A stretch of DNA of 44,761 nucleotides from a virus, in the IMG/VR virus record IMGVR_UViG_3300045988_103633, positions 1 to 44,761 of that record, one strand, 5' to 3'. The notes below the pieces were generated by a model, which did no database searches, was not told where the DNA came from, and saw nothing but the letters and a program-made list of their open reading frames with translations. The position numbers and the translations under genes were made by a program. Each line of letters starts with the position of its first letter. Positions within the stretch are counted from its first letter, which is position 1. Below are positions 1,589-42,300 of this stretch, in pieces.

Positions 1589-1830
1589 AAGATCAGATCA
1601 TGAAAATGTTTAATTTGTCGGATGTTGCTTATAACCGTTTGAAATGGACAGTAAGCATTGTTTTGCCGGCAATCATCACTTTTTTCGGAATTCTAGGTCA
1701 AACAATGGGTTGGGATTTCACTGATAAAGTGATCACGATTGGAACGGCTTTCGTTGCAATGTTAGGGATCATTTTGGGAATTTCAACAAACGAATACAAC
1801 AAAAACGAAGAAAACAAAAAAGATGAATAA
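1585..1830 (+). CDS. Holin, phage phi-LC3 holin family-like (Phage_holin_1)
   Basis: 81 aa. Contains AYNRLKWTVSIVLPAIITFFGILG and a second TM segment (IGTAFVAMLGIILGIS), then a charged C-terminus. Sits immediately upstream of the endolysin. GTG start is 6-7 nt after GGAGGTG. Confidence 0.8.
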   Translation: MKDQIMKMFNLSDVAYNRLKWTVSIVLPAIITFFGILGQTMGWDFTDKVITIGTAFVAMLGIILGISTNEYNKNEENKKDE

Positions 1831-1845
1831 GGGAGGAAAAAGAAA

Positions 1846-2847
1846 ATGGCAGGAGAAGTTTTTAGCAAATTGATTACAAGCGTGAATCCAAAAATCATGA
1901 ATGCCAGCAGTCGAAACGGCATGAAGATTGATCGGATCATCATCCATCACAATGCAACAACGAACAAAGATGTCGCAATGGACACATGGGTAAAAGGTGG
2001 ACCGGCAGGAACATCCGCACATTATGAATGCACACCAGATGAAATCATTGGTTGCGTAGGCGAACAATATGCAGCATGGCACGCAGGAGGAACAGGCGGA
2101 TCAGACATCCCTAGAATTTCAAACCCTAATCAACGATCGATTGGTATTGAAAACGTCAATTCAAGCGGTGCGCCTAATTGGTCAGTTGATCCACGTACAA
2201 TCAGAAATTGTGCGAAATTAGTTGCTGACATTTGTAAACGATACAATATTCCATTGGATCGAAAACACGTATTAGGACATAACGAAGTAACAGCGACAGC
2301 TTGTCCGGGTGGAATAAACGTTGATGAAGTTGTCCGATTGGCGAAAGAGTACGCAAAAGGTGCGAGCGATTCAAATGTTGCACAAGAACAAAAGCCAAGC
2401 AAACCAACAACAAAAACGCATGATCAAATCATCGCTGAAAGTAAACCGAAAAAAGTCGGCAGATATGTTGGCAAATTGGAAAAATTCAATGAGTTTAAGT
2501 TAGGGATTTTCCGTATTGCTGGTTGGTTAGTTCCTACGGAGGGAGCGCCAGCTTTAAATTATGGTTTTGTTTTTTGGAAAGAAGCAGGAACAGGAAAAGA
2601 AATTGGCCGTTGTCCGTCGAAAGGCATCGTAAGAAACGACGTCAACAAAGCATACGGATTGCCTAACGGTTTGAAATTCGGCCTTGATGGTACGCTAGAC
2701 ATCAAGAAATTTGCAGGCAAGAAAGTATATCCATGTTTGCGCAGAACGAACGATAAAGCAGGAAACAGCATTGCAGGCAAACCAAACGGCAATGGTTGGA
2801 TCGATATCGAGTTTCCGGAATACGTTTTGACAATTCCGAAAAGATAG
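1846..2847 (+). CDS. Endolysin: N-acetylmuramoyl-L-alanine amidase (Amidase_2/PGRP fold) with an uncharacterised C-terminal cell-wall-binding region
   Basis: N-terminal motifs IIIHHNAT, SAHY, AWHAG, SIGIEN, VLGHNEV..TACPG are typical of Amidase_2. A linker (QEQKPSKPTTK) is followed by about 140 aa with no motif I recognise. Confidence 0.85.
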   Translation: MAGEVFSKLITSVNPKIMNASSRNGMKIDRIIIHHNATTNKDVAMDTWVKGGPAGTSAHYECTPDEIIGCVGEQYAAWHAGGTGGSDIPRISNPNQRSIGIENVNSSGAPNWSVDPRTIRNCAKLVADICKRYNIPLDRKHVLGHNEVTATACPGGINVDEVVRLAKEYAKGASDSNVAQEQKPSKPTTKTHDQIIAESKPKKVGRYVGKLEKFNEFKLGIFRIAGWLVPTEGAPALNYGFVFWKEAGTGKEIGRCPSKGIVRNDVNKAYGLPNGLKFGLDGTLDIKKFAGKKVYPCLRRTNDKAGNSIAGKPNGNGWIDIEFPEYVLTIPKR

Positions 2848-8409: not shown

Positions 8410-9291
8410 GTGGAAAACATGAGAGATTCAATGCAAATGCTTATGAGCAAGTTCATGATCAAAACGGATGAAATGTGCGAAATCCACGGAATTGCGAAAG
8501 TAATTGCCAGAAATCAAAACGACATGAAGCCTTTTTGCGTTGAATGTCGCAGGTTGGAAATCGAACAGCAAAACAAAGAAAGAGCGGATAAAGCCTTGCA
8601 AGCAGATATCAAGCGAAAAACGTATGATGCACTGAAATATGATTCGATTTGCTCGGATGATGATGTTTGGAAAGCATCTTTCGACACGTTCCGGACGGAT
8701 GGCAAAGATGCAGAAGCTTTGAAGATCGCAAAAGACAAAGCCAGACACATTGCCGGAGAGTACCTGGCGAAACGAATTGAAGTTGACGAAAAAGGGAAAA
8801 AGAAGATCGTTAGAAACGAATTTAATACGATTTTAACAGGCCCAGCCGGATCGGGAAAAAGCCATTTGGCCATGTCGATTCTTAAAGCCGTGAACGAACA
8901 TTCCGATCCCTGGCAAAGTTGCATTTTCGTTTCAACAGTCGATTTGCTGATGCTTATCCGTGACAGTTTCGGCAAACCGGATTCGAAATTTTCAGAAGCA
9001 AACATGATCAATCTGTTAACAAGTTGCGATTTGCTCGTATTGGATGATCTAGGAACAGAATCAAGCTTGGTAAGAAGTGCGAATGAATCATCGGATTTTG
9101 TGCAAAAAGTTTTGTTTAGCATCTTATCGAGGAAAAGGACAATCATCACGACAAATCTTTCATCGGGTCAATTGATGGATATGTACAATCCTAAAATCAT
9201 TTCTCGAATCAACAAGGGAGTAGGATTTGACGGAAAGCACGTGATCAAGATGCCGGATGATGTCGAAGACAAACGTATTTTATCGTTTTAG
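8410..9291 (+). CDS. DnaC/IstB-like AAA+ helicase loader with an N-terminal Cys-pair zinc motif
   Basis: Walker A GPAGSGKSHL, Walker B LLVLDDLGTE, sensor TTNLS. N-terminal CEIHG...CVEC. Confidence 0.8.
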   Translation: MENMRDSMQMLMSKFMIKTDEMCEIHGIAKVIARNQNDMKPFCVECRRLEIEQQNKERADKALQADIKRKTYDALKYDSICSDDDVWKASFDTFRTDGKDAEALKIAKDKARHIAGEYLAKRIEVDEKGKKKIVRNEFNTILTGPAGSGKSHLAMSILKAVNEHSDPWQSCIFVSTVDLLMLIRDSFGKPDSKFSEANMINLLTSCDLLVLDDLGTESSLVRSANESSDFVQKVLFSILSRKRTIITTNLSSGQLMDMYNPKIISRINKGVGFDGKHVIKMPDDVEDKRILSF

Positions 9292-9300
9292 GCGAGAAGA

Positions 9301-9336
9301 CTCCCACCTCAAGGAACGAAAGTGAATAGGTGGGAG
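9301..9336 (+). promoter_or_regulatory. Left-end (LE) subterminal hairpin of the IS
   Basis: CTCCCACC-tcaaggaacgaaagtgaata-GGTGGGAG. The loop shares GAAcGAAAGTG with the RE hairpin. Confidence 0.65.
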
Positions 9337-9362
9337 ATGAATCGCCTTTGAACAAGGGATGA

Positions 9363-9515
9363 CTACTTACCATCTCTATTGTCCAACTGTTCAAGTGCAT
9401 ATTGAATAAGATAAATAATTGTTTGGGTACGAGTTGTAAAACCTTTCTTTTCTTTGAACTCGTCAATTCGTTTCAATAATTCTTTTGGATAACGCATATT
9501 CAAAACTTGCGACAT
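9363..9515 (-). CDS. Ribbon-helix-helix (CopG/Arc/MetJ-like) protein, 50 aa. The only convincing minus-strand gene. Absent from the ORF track (under 60 aa).
   Basis: My translation is MSQVLNMRYPKELLKRIDEFKEKKGFTTRTQTIIYLIQYALEQLDNRDGK, which has a beta-strand/helix/turn/helix pattern. A GGAGG lies 6 nt upstream of the ATG (9515..9513). Confidence 0.65.
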   Translation of the reverse strand: MSQVLNMRYPKELLKRIDEFKEKKGFTTRTQTIIYLIQYALEQLDNRDGK

Positions 9516-9601
9516 TTTTTAACCTCCATATTGTGTATTAAAATAATACATGATATAATCAATGTATATTATAATAATACACAAATAAGGAGGTGAAAGC
9601 A
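9516..9601. promoter_or_regulatory. Divergent promoter/operator region between the RHH gene and tnpB
   Basis: TGATATAAT (9551-9559) faces tnpB, and a TATAAT is present on the minus strand. An imperfect inverted repeat (ttgtgtattaaaataataca / tgtatattataataatacacaa) brackets them. Confidence 0.5.
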
Positions 9602-10726
9602 ATGTTAGTGAATAAAGCCTATAAATTTCGTATCTATCCAAGCAAAGAACAAGAAATACTGATTGCTAAAACAATCGGTTGTTCTCGTTTTGTATTCAAT
9701 CATTTCCTCGCAAAATGGAACGATACTTATAAGGCAACAGGAAAAGGTTTGACTTACAATTCGTGTTCTTCTCAATTAACCCAATTAAAGAAAGAATTAG
9801 TTTGGCTAAAAGAAGTAGATAGTATTGCGATTCAATCGTCATTAAAAAATCTTGCTGATGCTTATTCTCGCTTCTTTAAGAAGCAAAACGATACACCTCG
9901 CTTCAAGTCCAAAAAGAATAAGGTTCAATCTTATACAACAAAACACACGAATGGAAACATTGCCATTGAAGGCAACAAAATCAAATTGCCTAAACTTGGA
10001 TGGATTCGTTTTGCAAAGAGTCGTGAAGTAGAAGGTCGTATTCTCAATGCAACAATTAGACGAAATCCAAGTGGCAAATATTTTGTATCCATTCTTGTAG
10101 AAACAGAAGTACAACCGTTAGAAAAAACAGGTTCTTCTGTGGGCATAGATGTCGGCTTGAAAGATTTTGCTATTATTTCAGATGGAACTGTCTACTCTAA
10201 TCCTAAGTTTTTTCGAAGATTAGAAGAAAAGTTGGCAAAAGAACAACGGATTCTTTCAAGACGTAAAAAAGGTGGTTCAAATTGGGATAAACAACGGGTT
10301 AAGGTTGCCAGAATCCATGAACGCATTGTAAATGCCCGAACAGATTACTTGCAAAAAATCTCTACTGAAATCATCAAAAACCACGATGTAATCGGTATTG
10401 AATATTTGAAAATAAGTAATATGCTAAAGAATCATAACCTTGCAAAAGCGATCAGCGAAGTATCTTGGTATCAATTCAGAACGATGCTTGAATACAAAGC
10501 GAAATGGTACGGAAAGCAAGTTGTCACAGTAGCAAAAAACTTTCCATCCAGTCAACTTTGTTCGTGTTGCGGATACAAAAACAAAGACGTTAAGAATCTA
10601 AATCTTCGTGAATGGGATTGCCCATCTTGTGGAACACATCACGACAGAGATATTAACGCAAGTTTGAATCTTAAAAATGAAGCCATAAGGCTTCTAACCG
10701 TAGGAACGACGGGGATAGCCTACTAA
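9602..10726 (+). CDS. tnpB: TnpB (OrfB_IS605) RNA-guided nuclease, 374 aa, with RuvC and zinc-ribbon motifs apparently intact
   Basis: N-terminal [13 protein letters not shown]. Ruv[12 protein letters not shown], RuvC-II IGIEYL, zinc ribbon CSCCG...CPSCG, Ruv[15 protein letters not shown] 9602 is 8 nt after AAGGAGG (the track starts at GTG 9593). Confidence 0.9.
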
Positions 10727-10800
10727 ATATCCGCTCGATAGAGCGAAGTTCGTAGGAATCTCCCAATTCTAAGCGAAGCGAAAGTGGGAGTAGTTCAATC
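10640..10800 (+). ncRNA. Putative omega/reRNA scaffold overlapping the tnpB 3' end and the RE. Extent is a guess.
   Basis: In characterised TnpB systems the guide RNA derives from this region. Local stems: gtagg...cctac (10700-10723), cgctc-gata-gagcg (10731-10745) and the RE hairpin. Confidence 0.4.
10760..10790 (+). promoter_or_regulatory. Right-end (RE) subterminal hairpin of the IS
   Basis: CTCCCA-attctaagcgaagcgaaag-TGGGAG. Same stem sequence and strand as the LE hairpin. Confidence 0.65.
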
Positions 10801-10803
10801 TAA

Positions 10804-10819
10804 TGTTTCACATGAAACA
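10804..10819. promoter_or_regulatory. Palindrome copy b (TGTTTCACATGAAACA), 14 nt after the RE hairpin
   Basis: Identical 16-mer to copy e. It ends 28 nt before ATG 10848. Confidence 0.8.
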
Positions 10820-10847
10820 AAATAATCGGATGAAAGGTGGAAAAAAC

Positions 10848-11024
10848 ATGTGTGAAGTATGCAAAGGGAAAAAAGTGGTAGTTGTTAACGTTGGCGGAGG
10901 GATTACATCTTTTCAACCTTGCCTAAAATGCAATAAACCAGAATACAACGAACGTCACAAAGAAACATGGGCTGATTTGGAGCGCATTTTAAACGTGTGC
11001 AATCCTAATACTAAAATCGATTAA
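10848..11024 (+). CDS. Small zinc-finger protein (58 aa, CxxC...CxxC)
   Basis: MCEVCKGKK...CLKCNK. ATG follows AAAGGTGG. In frame with ORF-track 10803..11024. Confidence 0.65.
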   Translation: MCEVCKGKKVVVVNVGGGITSFQPCLKCNKPEYNERHKETWADLERILNVCNPNTKID

Positions 11025-13710: not shown

Positions 13711-13756
13711 TTCGGATATTTTCAAATATGAGCGACTAGAATCGGGGTATTGATCG

Positions 13757-13840
13757 ATGCAACCAGTATATATTTTGTGGGCGGTATTTATCGCAATTTT
13801 TATCGGTGTAATTATTTTCAAAGATGGCGAAGGAGATTAG
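13757..13840 (+). CDS. Possible 27-aa single-TM micro-protein
   Basis: My translation is MQPVYILWAVFIAIFIGVIIFKDGEGD. The RBS is weak. Confidence 0.3.
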   Translation: MQPVYILWAVFIAIFIGVIIFKDGEGD

Positions 13841-13842
13841 AA

Positions 13843-13980
13843 ATGGGAAAACGTGGCAAACGAATCAAAAAGAAAAACAGAAAACAAAAAGAATTGCGTG
13901 AGATCAACGAACAAAAAACAAAGAAAGTGAGTGTTCAAAATGGCATTAGTGGAGTACACAGCAACAAAAGTCGTTTGTGA
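13843..13980 (+). CDS. Possible 45-aa highly basic peptide
   Basis: ATG is 6 nt after GAAGGAGA. It overlaps the next gene by 41 nt. Confidence 0.35.
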   Translation: MGKRGKRIKKKNRKQKELREINEQKTKKVSVQNGISGVHSNKSRL

Positions 13981-14248
13981 TATTTGTGGAGCGGATGCAA
14001 ACGGATCATGGTTTCGCAGGGAAGAAGTAAACGGAATTATAAATCGATTGTTTATCAGTCCGATCGATTTATGCGACACACATTCGAAGATGTATGACGA
14101 AGACGAAGCATTCAAAAAGTACGTTGTATTGGAAAGCGATAAAAACAATTATCCACAGGAAAAGAAAGATGAATTGATTCAGGCAATGAAACAAAAATGG
14201 GAGGGTATGGAAGAATGGCAACAAGATCAAATGAAGAACAACAATTGA
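13940..14248 (+). CDS. Hypothetical protein (102 aa) with a CxxC...C..H motif
   Basis: ORF track 13931..14248. The ATG at 13940 is preferred as the start. Confidence 0.55.
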   Translation: MALVEYTATKVVCDICGADANGSWFRREEVNGIINRLFISPIDLCDTHSKMYDEDEAFKKYVVLESDKNNYPQEKKDELIQAMKQKWEGMEEWQQDQMKNNN

Positions 14249-14463
14249 TCGCAGAAATAAAAGCAAATTACACAGGATTTGTGAATAACTCTTTTATCGG
14301 AAATATAAGCACAAGCGGACATCCCAGGATTTTGGATGGTTTATTGGTAAACTTGATCGCAGACATTATCAACCGCAAAGAAACGGACGAAGAGCGCCAC
14401 AATCTTTGCTATCAGATTGACCAGGTTATTTCAGATCACTTGAAGCAGGAGGAAGATCGATGA
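14215..14463 (+). CDS. Hypothetical protein (82 aa)
   Basis: ATG is 10 nt after GGAGG. In frame with ORF-track 14197..14463. Confidence 0.55.
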   Translation: MATRSNEEQQLIAEIKANYTGFVNNSFIGNISTSGHPRILDGLLVNLIADIINRKETDEERHNLCYQIDQVISDHLKQEEDR

Positions 14464-14699
14464 AATATCGGGTTGGGGATAGGTTCATGGCAAGAGTGAA
14501 AGGAGAGTTCCTTATTCGTGAGGTGGTCGCAGTCGATTGCGATCATCCACACGGATATCATTATAAAATGATGGCCAACGATTCAAAACCGTTTTGGCAA
14601 ACAGAAAAGCAATTGGATAAATATATTCACGTTGGAAATGTTTTTCGAATTGAACGTTCTTGCGAGATATACAAAGCAACACAAGAAAAAACGATGTGA
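14460..14699 (+). CDS. Hypothetical protein (79 aa)
   Basis: ATGA overlap with the upstream gene. Confidence 0.6.
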   Translation: MKYRVGDRFMARVKGEFLIREVVAVDCDHPHGYHYKMMANDSKPFWQTEKQLDKYIHVGNVFRIERSCEIYKATQEKTM

Positions 14700-14713
14700 A
14701 GAGGGGTTATAGC

Positions 14714-14914
14714 ATGGAAATGAATCAATTTAGCGCAGGTGACCGGATCATTTGCAAATATTCGGATGTTGCTGATTGGATTTATAAGGTTGATAAATTC
14801 GAAAAGAAGGATCGAAATGGCGTGTATCATTTACTTTCGCCATCAGGTGTGAATTTTGAGTGTCAACAAGCGAACGTGGAAGATGTTTGTGAATTGTATG
14901 AGAAAGGACGTTGA
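14714..14914 (+). CDS. Hypothetical protein (66 aa)
   Basis: ATG follows GAGGGG. In frame with ORF-track 14660..14914. Confidence 0.55.
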   Translation: MEMNQFSAGDRIICKYSDVADWIYKVDKFEKKDRNGVYHLLSPSGVNFECQQANVEDVCELYEKGR

Positions 14915-39303: not shown

Positions 39304-42300
39304 ATGGCAAATTTGGTTTCGGGTAGTTTCAAATCAACAAATGTAAACGATGGAGCAGATGCAAGGTTGCTGATACTTGAAACATCGGGAAATGTGATCG
39401 GATTTGATGCAGAAGGAAAAGCAGTGCCAGGGCAAAAAGTAGATATTGTTGCATACATTCAAAATATAGAGGGTTCGCCGATATTCACGGCGATCCCTTA
39501 CATTGGAGAAACGGCACAAACACCGATCACATTAAAAGGATCGGGAAATGCTAGGTATATCACAGGGGAAGAATGGAATAAAGATTGGAACAGATTAATT
39601 GTTTCGGTATCGTTGGCAGGTTTCACAGATTCCACCACGATTGCAAAGGTACAAGATGGTTCGGGTAAAGATGGCCAAAACGCTATTGTTGGCCTTTTAA
39701 CGAACGAAGCCATCACGTTATCCGCAGATGAAAACGGAAATATCCCGGACTTTTCCACAGCTACCGGAGAATTTCAAATTTACGACGGATTGGCGAAAGT
39801 CACAGAAGGCGTTTCTTTTGCGATTTCCGACCAAGTAGGCGCATCCGGTACAATTAACCAGAACGGCGTTTACAACGTCACAGCGATGACAGCAGACACA
39901 GCAACGATCGAATTCAAAGCGACATACAAAGGAACGGAGATCGTTAAGAAATTAAGTCTGGCAAAATCTCGCAAAGGACAACCAGGTAAAAACGCCAATT
40001 TGCTTTATTTATCCGTTTCGAACAATGTGATCGTATTTGATGCAAACGATGTCGCATTTCCTAACCAACGCATTTCGATCGTGGCTAAGTTACAAAACAT
40101 TTCCGGCACAGCCACATTCAAAGCGATCCCTTACATCAACGCAACAGCGCAATCAGAAATCGCATTATCGGGTTCGGGCAATGATCGATACATTTCCGGG
40201 GAAAATTGGGATAAGCGATGGACGAGCCTATCAGTCACGGCAACGATCGGGGGATTAAGCGATCAAACAACTATTTATAAGATCAGCGAAGTAAAAGGAG
40301 CAGACGGCAAAAATACGATCATCGGCATCTTAACAAACGAATCGATCACGATTTCAGCGGATGCAAATGGGAACGTTCCAGACTTCACAAAGGCAACAGG
40401 AACATTCCAGATTTACGATGGCATCGCATTGGTTGATCCGAAAAACGTCACTTATGCAGTTCAGACACAAACAGGCGCAACGACTACGATCGGCACAGAT
40501 GGCGTTTATAGAGTTACCGCAATGAGTGCAGACACAGCAACAGTCGTTTTCAAGGCTACCTATGGCGGAGTTGAGAGAACGAAACAATTATCCATCGCAA
40601 AATCAAAAGCCGGCCAAAAAGGCGAAGCAGGCAACGGCATCAAGTCAACGAAAACACAATATCAAAGATCAGCAGACGGACAAACACCGCCAACAGGCGC
40701 ATGGCTTGATGAAATCCCGGTAGTTTCACCAGGAGAATTCTTGTGGACGAGGGTCACGCAAACATTCGATGATGATACAACATCGGTCAGCTATAGTGTT
40801 TCAAAAATGGGGGAAGATGGCGAAAATGGCAAACCATCATATATTCACACCGCATGGGCAAACGTTGATACGTTCCCGGAATTTGTTAAGGGCGCACGCC
40901 CTAACGTTCATCGAAAATCTGAATTGTATTCTATGCTATCAAATAATTCCGCAGATTATCCCAATCAAGGTTATTGGCTAACAGATACAGATGGAAGGTT
41001 ATTTTTCAGAACAGAAAGAACGAACTTAGAAAAGAACCCTGATAAATTTTCTGTATATAACGGAATTGGGATGGATTATAATTCGAATGATCCAGAGAAT
41101 TCAGGTAGCATTGACACAAATCTAGTAGGCAAAAAAGTGATTGTTTCCGGCAGATGGAGAGGGTCAAGAGAAACAGAACTTGTGTTTATGTCTAAAGTAA
41201 TTGTTGACGGAGTAACAAAAGCATTGCCTAAAGACAAAGAGAAGGTCAAAATATCTACAGATTGGCAAACTTTTTCAACTGTAATCGATAAAGTAGAAGA
41301 AGGAACGAGTGTAGTTAGATTTTTGCCGTCATATAATTATCCTGGCAATTGGGAAACGGCGGAAGGTTTTTATTTAGATCAAAAAGATATCAAAATTGAA
41401 ATTGTCGATGAGGGAGAAAGCGAAGAACCTACGCCGTGGATTCCGCCAATCACTCGCAAATTGTTCAATCCTAAAAATATTTTTGAAGGAGGAAATTCCA
41501 GAAATCCAGCTAACTTTCAAGGTTCGAACGTGGAAGCGACAAAAAATGTAGAGGTAGCAGAATGGGGAGCTAAAGATGCATCTACATTTGTGATAACAGG
41601 AGGAACACACGTTACCAAAGGTGTAATGAAAGTTAGGTTGACCAATCCGCCTTTGCAATCAGATGGAAAAACGTTTTATCGAACAAATTTTCATATACGT
41701 AATAATCACGAAACAAATACTTTGATCATTGCATTAAATGGAGGAACGAGCGTTTCTGTTCCACCTAAAGCAATCGGATATTTTGGAACGCCTACAAACC
41801 AACACGTTGCAAACAGTGATTTGCAATTTCACTTTCAGGTGGCCGATCCTAGTATGGATATCAATTGCACATTTTGGAATCCAGAATTTTATGCGTACGA
41901 TATCGAACATGGGTTCACGGAGAAAGCACCTGGAAGCGACGGGCGTATTTATTTGGGAACATACACAGATAGCAACGAAGAAGCATCGGGAAATCCGGCT
42001 GATTATGATTGGGCAAAAGTCAAAGGCGAAGACGGTGTGGGGCTAGAATCAACAGAAATCTTTTATGTAGGTTCAACAAACGGACAAACACCGCCAGAAA
42101 GCGGATGGCAAACGACTGTTCCTAACGTGCCACAAGGTCAATACATGTGGACAAAGATTGTGTGGACTTATTCGGATGATTCCATAAAAACCGCTTATTC
42201 AGTGGGTAAAATTGGTGCTAATGGAACAAACGGAAACGATGGCTTGCCTGGAAAAGATGGCGTAGGGATCGATGACACGTTGATTGAATATGCGGTCAGC

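Follow-up and report, generated by a model that had tools for sequence, protein, structure and literature searches.

Arc-like ribbon-helix-helix (RHH) genes were reported in association with the RNA-guided nuclease TnpB by Zedaveinyte et al. 2023 (bioRxiv 10.1101/2023.11.20.567912), and RHH ("Arc") genes were already known in that year inside insertion sequences (ISs) of the IS605 family, including elements that hold arc and tnpB only. Moon, Zedaveinyte, Wiegand and Sternberg (28 Sep 2026, bioRxiv 10.64898/2026.09.24.754181) named the protein Arc and described elements in which tnpB is opposed, on the other strand, by arc, either alone or together with the transposase gene tnpA. Their chromatin immunoprecipitation sequencing placed Arc on the promoter between the genes, where its motifs cover the tnpB -35 and the arc/tnpA -10 boxes, and a tnpB-promoter reporter was repressed by Arc; the binding data extended to elements with arc and tnpB only. 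They further noted that Arc proteins of 50 aa or fewer escape annotation, and mentioned an Arc-TnpB interaction as proposed. In ISGst2 of Geobacillus stearothermophilus, the target-adjacent motif (TAM) is TTTAT and the end motif differs from it at positions 3 and 5; TnpA and TnpB2 are active, and TnpB cuts the donor joint, whereupon recombination restores the element (Meers et al. 2023, PMC10055086). Here we describe a 1515-bp element of this kind at positions 9284-10798 of the IMG/VR virus record IMGVR_UViG_3300045988_103633, analysed over all its 44,761 nt (hereafter the window). With a probability of about 0.8, we consider it to be an ISGst2-type arc-tnpB element without a transposase, equipped with an intact TnpB, a guide RNA (omega RNA) and an Arc repressor, and needing TnpA in trans. 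An earlier, sequence-only reading of this DNA had suggested that the RHH-TnpB pairing might be an undescribed unit, a claim that falls; published Arc experiments on homologous architectures match the mechanism it proposed. The pairing is already published and is no new kind of system; what is new here is an ISGst2-like Arc-TnpB element in a new host replicon, a phage.

The window spans an entire phage genome. Aligned with Enterococcus phage fHoEfm07 (PV296021), it is a circular permutation of that genome with about 96% identity across 41.5 of 44.8 kb. The host replicon is a virulent-looking Enterococcus siphophage, whose siblings are E. faecium phages. In fHoEfm07 all genes are on one strand, among them genes for an Erf-like annealing protein and a RecU-type resolvase (RecU is also present in the window), and no integrase is annotated. 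A metagenome contig, L186, belongs to the same phage species and has the same empty site as fHoEfm07, ...GTATTTTAT followed by TCTAATG..., the right half in fHoEfm07 being TCTAATGTTTCACATGAAAC. In the window, 1515 bp (9284-10798) are interposed between both halves of this site. The empty site runs from ...TATTTTAT straight into TCTAATG..., the filled site has the same two sequences on either side of the IS, and zero bases are duplicated. These IS-free alleles, for which the sequence-only reading had suggested a search, fix the ends and the TAM TTTAT. The features at the insertion site are as follows.

8410-9291, plus strand: DnaC/IstB-like helicase loader gene (Pfam IstB_IS21, 3.5e-10; comparison with fHoEfm07).
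9279-9283, plus strand: TTTAT, the TAM, phage DNA within the final codons of the loader gene, directly 5′ of the left end.
9284-10798, plus strand: complete IS200/IS605-family element, arc plus tnpB, without a transposase gene; 1515 bp, no target duplication.
9284-9349, plus strand: left end (LE), with a subterminal hairpin (inner stem 9301-9309/9328-9336, outer stem 9290-9295/9342-9347).
9363-9515, minus strand: arc, gene for a 50-aa RHH protein, a predicted repressor, divergent from tnpB (PHROG, AlphaFold2/Foldseek, selection).
9602-10726, plus strand: tnpB, gene for a predicted 374-aa RNA-guided endonuclease with RuvC and zinc ribbon motifs; ribosome binding site (RBS) GGAGG at 9589-9593.

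The insertion lies 3′ of TTTAT at the end of the helicase loader gene, among the replication genes of the phage, and two siblings keep the empty site. The DnaC-like gene takes its final two codons and its stop from the first 8 nt of the element, and the insertion alters the loader C-terminus from ...KRILF* to ...KRILSF*. The boundaries agree with those of other copies. Flanks are unrelated directly after ...GTAGTTCAA, the 3′ terminus of the element, in at least nine independent insertions, and they are unrelated directly before CGTTTTA.../CTAAAATA... in 6 contexts, each with TTTAT or TTTAC in front. The exact left-flank sequence gave zero matches in IMG/VR. The sequence-only reading had drawn the element at 9292-10800, which was right as to the IS200/IS605 element and is replaced by 9284-10798 as to its extent.

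Two hairpins that had been proposed at 9301-9336 and 10760-10790 are present and fold as single-stranded DNA. In the LE, CTCCCACC (9301-9308) pairs with GGTGGGAG (9329-9336), and the folding energy is -13.6 kcal/mol (z = -4.5; 0 of 200 shuffles equal it). At the right end (RE), CTCCCA (10760-10765) pairs with TGGGAG (10785-10790), the folding energy is -11 kcal/mol (z = -2.6), and the stem covaries between copies, CTCCCA/TGGGAG versus CCCCCA/TGGGGG. The loops had been said to share GAAnGAAAGTG; what they have exactly in common is the core CGAAAGTG, while the longer motif fits the LE only and not the RE loop, GAAGCGAAAGTG. The LE is 98.5% identical to that of the copy in Enterococcus phage iF6 and is common to tnpA-carrying relatives too.

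No Y1 (HUH) transposase gene tnpA was found inside 9284-10798, either in the list of open reading frames (ORFs) or by a Pfam scan, as the sequence-only reading had supposed in calling the element tnpB-only. Imperfect subterminal hairpins, one at each end and on the same strand, instead of terminal inverted repeats, and insertion 3′ of a fixed 4-5-nt motif without duplication, both defining traits of the IS200/IS605 family, are present here; the TnpA that also belongs to its definition is absent. The ISfinder IS1341 group admits tnpB-only members. We conclude that 9284-10798 is a complete IS200/IS605-family element lacking a transposase, with ends exact to the base. With no tnpA inside, it would not move autonomously and would need TnpA in trans.

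TnpB is predicted to be an intact RuvC nuclease. The motifs GIDVG (residue 181), IGIEYL (264) and HDRDINAS (347) contain the RuvC residues D183, E267 and D348/D350, and CSCC (320) and CPSC (340) provide the zinc ribbon cysteines C320/C323 and C340/C343. Profile searches matched Pfam OrfB_IS605 (2.6e-29), Cas12f1-like_TNB (1.8e-26) and HTH_OrfB_IS605 (6.6e-21), and NCBIfam IS200_TnpB with 628 bits against a cutoff of 425. The solved structures of ISDra2 TnpB were matched with an E-value of 3.9e-113 across residues 1-364. Thus, the 374-aa TnpB with RuvC D/E/D motifs and a zinc ribbon was correctly recognized in the sequence-only reading.

The 50-aa minus-strand ORF that had been read there as an RHH gene is likewise borne out. 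Its ATG is preceded, 7 nt away, by the RBS GGAGG (9527-9523, minus strand), and its product matched PHROG 4738, "transcriptional repressor", with 1.1e-8. NCBIfam gave weak matches only, all to the N-terminal RHH domain of NikR, and a search of PDB sequences with the Arc profile found nothing significant (NikR, E = 1.7). There are 43 close clusters of homologs, and at least 234 clusters by profile search; some of the clusters carry the source names "ribbon-helix-helix domain-containing protein" or "CopG/Arc/MetJ family regulator". Compared with its counterpart at locus L013, arc has 10 synonymous differences and 0 non-synonymous ones, which marks it as a real gene under purifying selection, judged from these substitutions. 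The AlphaFold2 model (predicted local distance difference test score 86.8) has an extended N-terminus followed by helices at 11-24 and 29-48, and the best Foldseek matches to it were NikR, the operator-bound P22 Arc (1par), CopG and MazE, all of them taken as RHH proteins (probability 0.96-0.99, template modelling score about 0.7). On the strength of this model, the predicted fold of the 50-aa ORF is that of an RHH protein. It is enclosed by the LE and tnpB, i.e. lies within the IS boundaries.

In order to place the element among its relatives, close TnpB relatives (at least 70% identity) with enough upstream sequence were surveyed at 71 genome loci and 18 IMG/VR viral loci. Among the genome loci, 12 had tnpA, 12 a divergent RHH-like ORF and 47 neither; among the viral loci the corresponding counts were 1, 9 and 8. 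In none of the 71 + 18 loci of this clade did tnpA and an RHH gene occur together in one element. RHH-like ORFs were more frequent on viral contigs (9 of 18) than in genomes (12 of 71; p = 0.01, or p = 0.07 without obvious duplicates); IMG/VR includes prophages, and we take this as only a hint of viral enrichment of RHH-bearing elements. The arrangement of arc and tnpB, whose recurrence elsewhere had been proposed as a check, was found at differing insertion sites at L004, L005, L013, L014, L117 and in Bacillus phage phiNIT1, and arc adjoins tnpB divergently at different insertion sites in bacterial chromosomes too. Identities of Arc and TnpB to those of the window were 100% and 87% in L013, 98% and 81% in L004, and 62% and 90% in phiNIT1 (L029), and the arc region was 93-97% identical in nucleotides where tnpB was merely 80-86%. 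This decoupling suggests that the regulator cassette is exchanged between elements.

In tnpA-bearing relatives (L096, L110, L139; Paenibacillus, Sporosarcina, Bacillus), the Y1 gene lies directly upstream of tnpB on the same strand. These relatives have in common the start TTTAT followed by CGTTTT..., the end ...GTAGTTCAA and the -10 box ATGATATAATCA, which in them stands upstream of tnpA. The shared ends and -10 box indicate that the window element is a derivative in which tnpA was replaced by a divergent small gene. The RHH gene therefore occupies the tnpA position of autonomous relatives, as had been supposed.

RHH-like ORFs beside tnpB fall into at least four sequence types. Apart from the type found in the window, at least three further types of 44-57-aa divergent ORFs with the RHH pattern (MERIPKLIKFPVDLV..., MSENRGLKTRKALSNAVRMDLYEQL..., MRVKFTTTLDSELLEKIK...) lie on the opposite strand about 60-95 nt upstream of tnpB. 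They were seen in L018, L047, L094, L095, L101, L102, L121, L125, L149 and L170, and also in L028, L030, L032 and L034, L035; tblastn with the window's Arc did not detect them. Decaying copies were also observed: a Geobacillus locus (L003) with an intact arc beside a tnpB interrupted by a DDE transposase gene, a Virgibacillus locus (L012) with arc beside an uncalled tnpB remnant of about 70% identity, and a Bacillus bingmayongensis locus (L124) with arc frameshifted after residue 36. In the plasmid collection, only copies of about 77% identity without arc were found, on Bacillus cereus-group plasmids.

The spacer between arc and tnpB (9516-9601) is 86 bp long and contains TGATATAAT at 9551-9559. 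The imperfect inverted repeat that had been noticed in it is an 18-nt repeat, 9531-9548/9567-9584, which is 89% complementary and flanks the -10 box. The following control elements are predicted in this region.

9531-9584, no strand assigned: predicted Arc operator region, two 19-nt palindromic units, O1 and O2, spaced 31 nt.
9532-9550, no strand assigned: O1, predicted Arc operator unit TGTGTATTAAAATAATACA (inverted-repeat analysis).
9563-9581, no strand assigned: O2, predicted Arc operator unit TGTATATTATAATAATACA (inverted-repeat analysis).
9531-9559, plus strand: predicted tnpB promoter, TTGTGT at 9531-9536, 17-nt spacer, extended -10 TGaTATAAT at 9551-9559, as read from the sequence.
9568-9597, minus strand: predicted arc promoter, TTCACC at 9597-9592, 18-nt spacer, TATAAT at 9573-9568; the scan matched 10 of 12 positions.

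The inverted repeats overlap both predicted promoters, O1 spanning TTGTGT, the best candidate for the tnpB -35, and O2 enclosing the predicted arc -10. O1 and O2 are the sole matches in the 44.8-kb window, where 0.1 would be expected by chance. Their sequences are kept in relatives bearing the same Arc type, while the phiNIT1-type RHH protein (62% identical) is accompanied at this position by another inverted repeat, GATATACA...TGTATATC. That the repeat changes along with the Arc type is indirect evidence that these repeats are Arc operators, as predicted. Arc was also considered as a regulator of phage genes, which was rejected because the window holds no further operator-like site at 3 or fewer mismatches.

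For the guide RNA, the final 180 nt of 22 non-identical element copies were aligned, and the following features were predicted.

10678-10798, plus strand: guide-RNA scaffold, minimum extent (RNAalifold covariation), containing the RE hairpin 10760-10790 and the end motif TTCAA at 10794-10798.
10698-10702/10708-10712, 10719-10723/10752-10756, 10730-10736/10741-10747, 10760-10768/10782-10790 and 10678-10681/10794-10797, plus strand: guide-RNA helices (RNAalifold).
10799-10818, plus strand: right flank and predicted omega RNA guide segment, TCTAATGTTTCACATGAAAC; the IS-free siblings have this same 20-mer directly after TTTAT.

RNAalifold found five helices with 29 pairs across the 22 copies, and 14 of the 29 pairs have compensatory changes. 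Standard pairing occurs in 98.3% of cells, compared to 37-52% in controls with the partners shifted 1-3 columns. Covariation scored 0.412, against 0.10 or less in the shifted versions, and 0 of 500 shuffles attained this score. The end of the tnpB coding sequence takes in two of the helices, and the last helix is the RE hairpin, whose stem one would expect just as much in DNA, for recognition by the transposase. This covariation is consistent with the anatomy expected for the guide RNA of a TnpB. Rfam gave no family at gathering thresholds over the whole window, and at E <= 1 in 9200-10900 only two chance microRNA-like matches, on an AT-rich palindrome. The 20-mer that matches the guide is preceded in the window by TTCAA and not by TTTAT, so the element's own locus is no target. 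In both fHoEfm07 and L186, the sequence after TTTAT matches the predicted guide at 20/20 positions. The predicted protospacer holds the palindrome GTTTCA-CA-TGAAAC (window 10805-10818), which resembles a widespread binding-site-like motif. In metagenome contigs the exact 20-nt right flank was found at 65 loci (L175-L239), of which only L186 is this phage; the other 64 are unrelated occurrences of this common palindrome. One of them, L231, bears tandem GTTTCACATGAAACATTT repeats.

Taken together, an ISGst2-type element of this composition would be expected to work as follows. It would move only when a Y1 transposase (TnpA) is supplied in trans. The last ~120 nt of the element and the next 16-20 nt of the flank would be transcribed as omega RNA, going by homology and covariation. 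The complex of TnpB and omega RNA would cut DNA that reads TTTAT and then TCTAATGTTTCACATG..., i.e. the vacated or never-occupied site, and homologous recombination after the cut would copy the element back in. If it behaves like the Arc proteins in the published experiments, the 50-aa Arc, once accumulated, would act as a repressor that keeps expression of tnpB and arc low.

Several observations speak against this account. Regarding the identity of Arc, Pfam RHH models gave no match to the 50-aa ORF at E <= 0.1, and the profile search that the sequence-only reading had suggested was thus positive for OrfB_IS605 and negative for RHH. Foldseek E-values for Arc were only 0.06-0.2, which is to be expected of a 50-residue query, and the window Arc is likened to tested Arc proteins by architecture and fold. 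The tnpB promoter has a weak -35, matching at 3 of 6 positions, for which reason the simple consensus scan did not call it. Additionally, the element is co-oriented with all phage genes, and therefore read-through transcription could express tnpB whatever Arc does. No cognate TnpA source was found in Enterococcus, the plasmid collection holding no Enterococcus copies. Finally, the closest known copy, that of iF6, is 92% identical, so the insertion need not be recent.

The iF6 copy bears on both the preferred account and its alternatives. Similar elements among 50,697 phage records occur only in phiNIT1-like Bacillus phages, seven in number, and in iF6 (Schiekvirus), so that, with the window, two unrelated Enterococcus phage lineages carry one. 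In the iF6 copy (L002 3007-4320; 3059-3123), window position 9349 is joined straight to 9551. The segment 9350-9550, with arc, O1 and the tnpB -35, is missing, whereas O2, the extended -10 and the RBS are kept at 100% and tnpB is intact at 374 aa. From this alignment, the iF6 copy is most simply seen as a deletion derivative of an arc-bearing element.

Among alternative explanations, the one that survives best is that the element serves the phage as an RNA-guided homing drive or as a weapon against competitors, beyond mere retention of a transposon. During co-infection TnpB would cut IS-free siblings, followed by repair from the IS-bearing genome or loss of the rival genome; as the incoming genome meets no Arc, an early pulse of TnpB would be followed by shut-off. 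With a perfect target in the siblings fHoEfm07 and L186 and TTCAA at the occupied locus, homing into co-infecting siblings, or their exclusion, is mechanistically possible, and the idea of a homing element or weapon that the sequence-only reading had put forward is plausible. The recombination functions named above (the annealing protein annotated in the sibling, the resolvase in both phages, no integrase annotated) and the spread of copies over two Enterococcus lineages and the Bacillus phages fit it too. A 2026 review describes TnpA-independent spread on plasmids and presents "non-restorative homing" into co-infecting phages as a theoretical case; in the literature we found no experiment reporting that TnpB homes from phage to phage, and the case is wholly inferential. 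The excess of RHH-bearing elements on viral contigs, which would also favour it, is weak, and IMG/VR includes prophages. The known genomes are two IS-free siblings and one IS-bearing one, in which a spread of the allele is not evident, and a repressor, lost moreover from the iF6 copy, is an odd accessory for a weapon. We regard such a service to the phage as unlikely. The further proposition that arc-tnpB is an RNA-guided gene drive between co-infecting phages, in which an early pulse would cut TTTAT-TCTAATGTTTCACATGAAAC and the element with linked replication-module alleles would be copied in by recombination proteins of the phage itself, or the rival lost, has a slimmer prospect still; if it were true, the arc-less iF6 copy would be a constitutively expressed version of the device.

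The element could also be an inert relic, an old immobile insertion whose genes are out of use. The phage has no tnpA, the nearest copy is 92% identical and some relatives are decaying, with arc frameshifted (L124), tnpB interrupted (L003) or tnpB uncalled (L012). Here, however, both ORFs are full length, and the catalytic motifs, zinc ribbon, hairpins, end motif and RNA helices are intact. In addition, arc differs from L013 by synonymous changes only, and phages of one species, about 96% identical, still differ in whether the site is filled. All of this makes a relic improbable. That Arc and TnpB form a toxin-antitoxin pair, Arc neutralising TnpB by binding instead of or besides repressing its transcription, recalls that RHH proteins are frequent antitoxins, that such a role was proposed for an archaeal RHH-TnpB pair (Altae-Tran et al., PMC10691335) and that Moon et al. 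mention a proposed interaction, but is very improbable, given that the archaeal features are absent (the window genes are divergent, the motifs canonical and the element mobile), that the predicted operator palindromes overlap both promoters, that most close relatives have tnpB without an RHH gene, and that iF6 lost arc with tnpB intact, a loss that a lethal toxin would not tolerate.

The surroundings of the insertions showed some further differences between phages. The iF6 copy has TTTAT at its left, and its right flank, CGCTCTTATT, has TTTAT in front in phage Porthos (L173) too. The two TTTAT sites of Porthos are at 1002-1006 and 1886-1890, and the 886 bp between them, with a prohibitin-like gene and the beginning of the gene after it, are absent from iF6. 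Recombination between two IS copies, seated at both TAM sites, would account for this gap, in which case the lineage has undergone more than one transposition. A 10-nt identity between Porthos and the LE (GCGAGAAGAC) was considered as microhomology causing the iF6 deletion; the idea fails because iF6 retains 8 LE nt (CGTTTTAG) ahead of that motif. In the IS neighbourhood of iF6, Enterococcus phage EFP01 (L174 2547-2678) has a different, fragmentary "transposase" annotation, and ZJGS3 and EFDG1 have an HNH endonuclease in the same variable Schiekvirus neighbourhood, which looks like a hotspot of mobile genes.

In both IS-free siblings a 438-bp zinc-finger gene ("RPC12/RpoP") begins some 31 nt right of the empty site and is absent from the window, according to a comparison of window 10799-10830 with L001 3085-3564 and L186 1094-1570. 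The deletion junction is 20-21 nt beyond the RE, about where TnpB would cut. ISDra2 TnpB cuts 15-21 nt from the TAM. This could be a coincidence because the intergenic spacer is short. Other segments that differ or are rearranged relative to fHoEfm07 (L240) are window 1818-2404, 13722-14726 and 40827-42016; they concern an endolysin-side region, a block missing near fHoEfm07 39.5-40.1 kb, and part of a large structural gene.

We believe that the value of this ISGst2-type element lies in its being a natural viral test case, with ends known to the base, a known TAM and a predicted guide. It comes with a matched pair, the isolated sibling fHoEfm07, about 96% identical, which keeps the intact target, and with a natural arc deletion, the iF6 copy in a second Enterococcus phage. 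This trio permits asking whether TnpB drives transposase-free copying into co-infecting genomes ("non-restorative homing"), and what Arc adds to a replicon that, with each infection, arrives in a cell without the repressor. As the siblings are E. faecium phages, there is also a bearing on phage therapy, since a transposon with an RNA-guided nuclease could bias the outcome of a cocktail.

Compared to the published Arc elements, the window element has in common a small RHH gene within the IS, divergent from tnpB, and it is predicted to have, as they do, an intergenic region that promotes transcription in both directions. The published elements have oppositely oriented motifs over the tnpB -35 and the arc -10, and O1 and O2 are predicted to be placed likewise. 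Arc was tested on elements of Petroclostridium xylanilyticum, Clostridium botulinum and further bacteria, the main ones of which have tnpA beside arc, whereas the window element has no tnpA and is carried by a virulent-looking phage. The main text of Moon et al. 2026 discusses no phage-borne element and mentions neither Bacillus nor Enterococcus. The archaeal RHH/MazE-TnpB pair of Altae-Tran et al. 2023, with the RHH protein co-folded with TnpB, is similar in having a small RHH gene that adjoins a tnpB predicted to be active. It differs in that the RHH gene lies upstream of a tnpB that is not mobile and whose catalytic site is rearranged, while the window has divergent genes, a canonical site and a mobile element.

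With ISGst2, the window element shares the TAM TTTAT, the end motif TTCAA, differing at the same positions 3 and 5, and, as predicted, a guide RNA from the right end, a likeness judged by TAM and end motif. The Geobacillus locus L003 has the same Arc type and ends similar to those of the window element. ISGst2 is autonomous, with tnpA and tnpB, whereas the window element has a divergent arc in the place of tnpA. ISDra2 of Deinococcus radiodurans has TTGAT as its TAM and, unlike the window element, no arc gene. Its TnpB (PDB 8exa, 8h1j, 8bf8) shares the RuvC D/E/D motifs and the zinc ribbon. Finally, phages have free-standing homing endonucleases (T4 Seg and Mob; localized marker exclusion), which are comparable in that a nuclease targets the element-less allele of a co-infecting relative, as the window TnpB may do. 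The specificity of T4 Seg and Mob comes from protein-DNA contacts, whereas that of the window TnpB would come from a guide RNA and the TAM.

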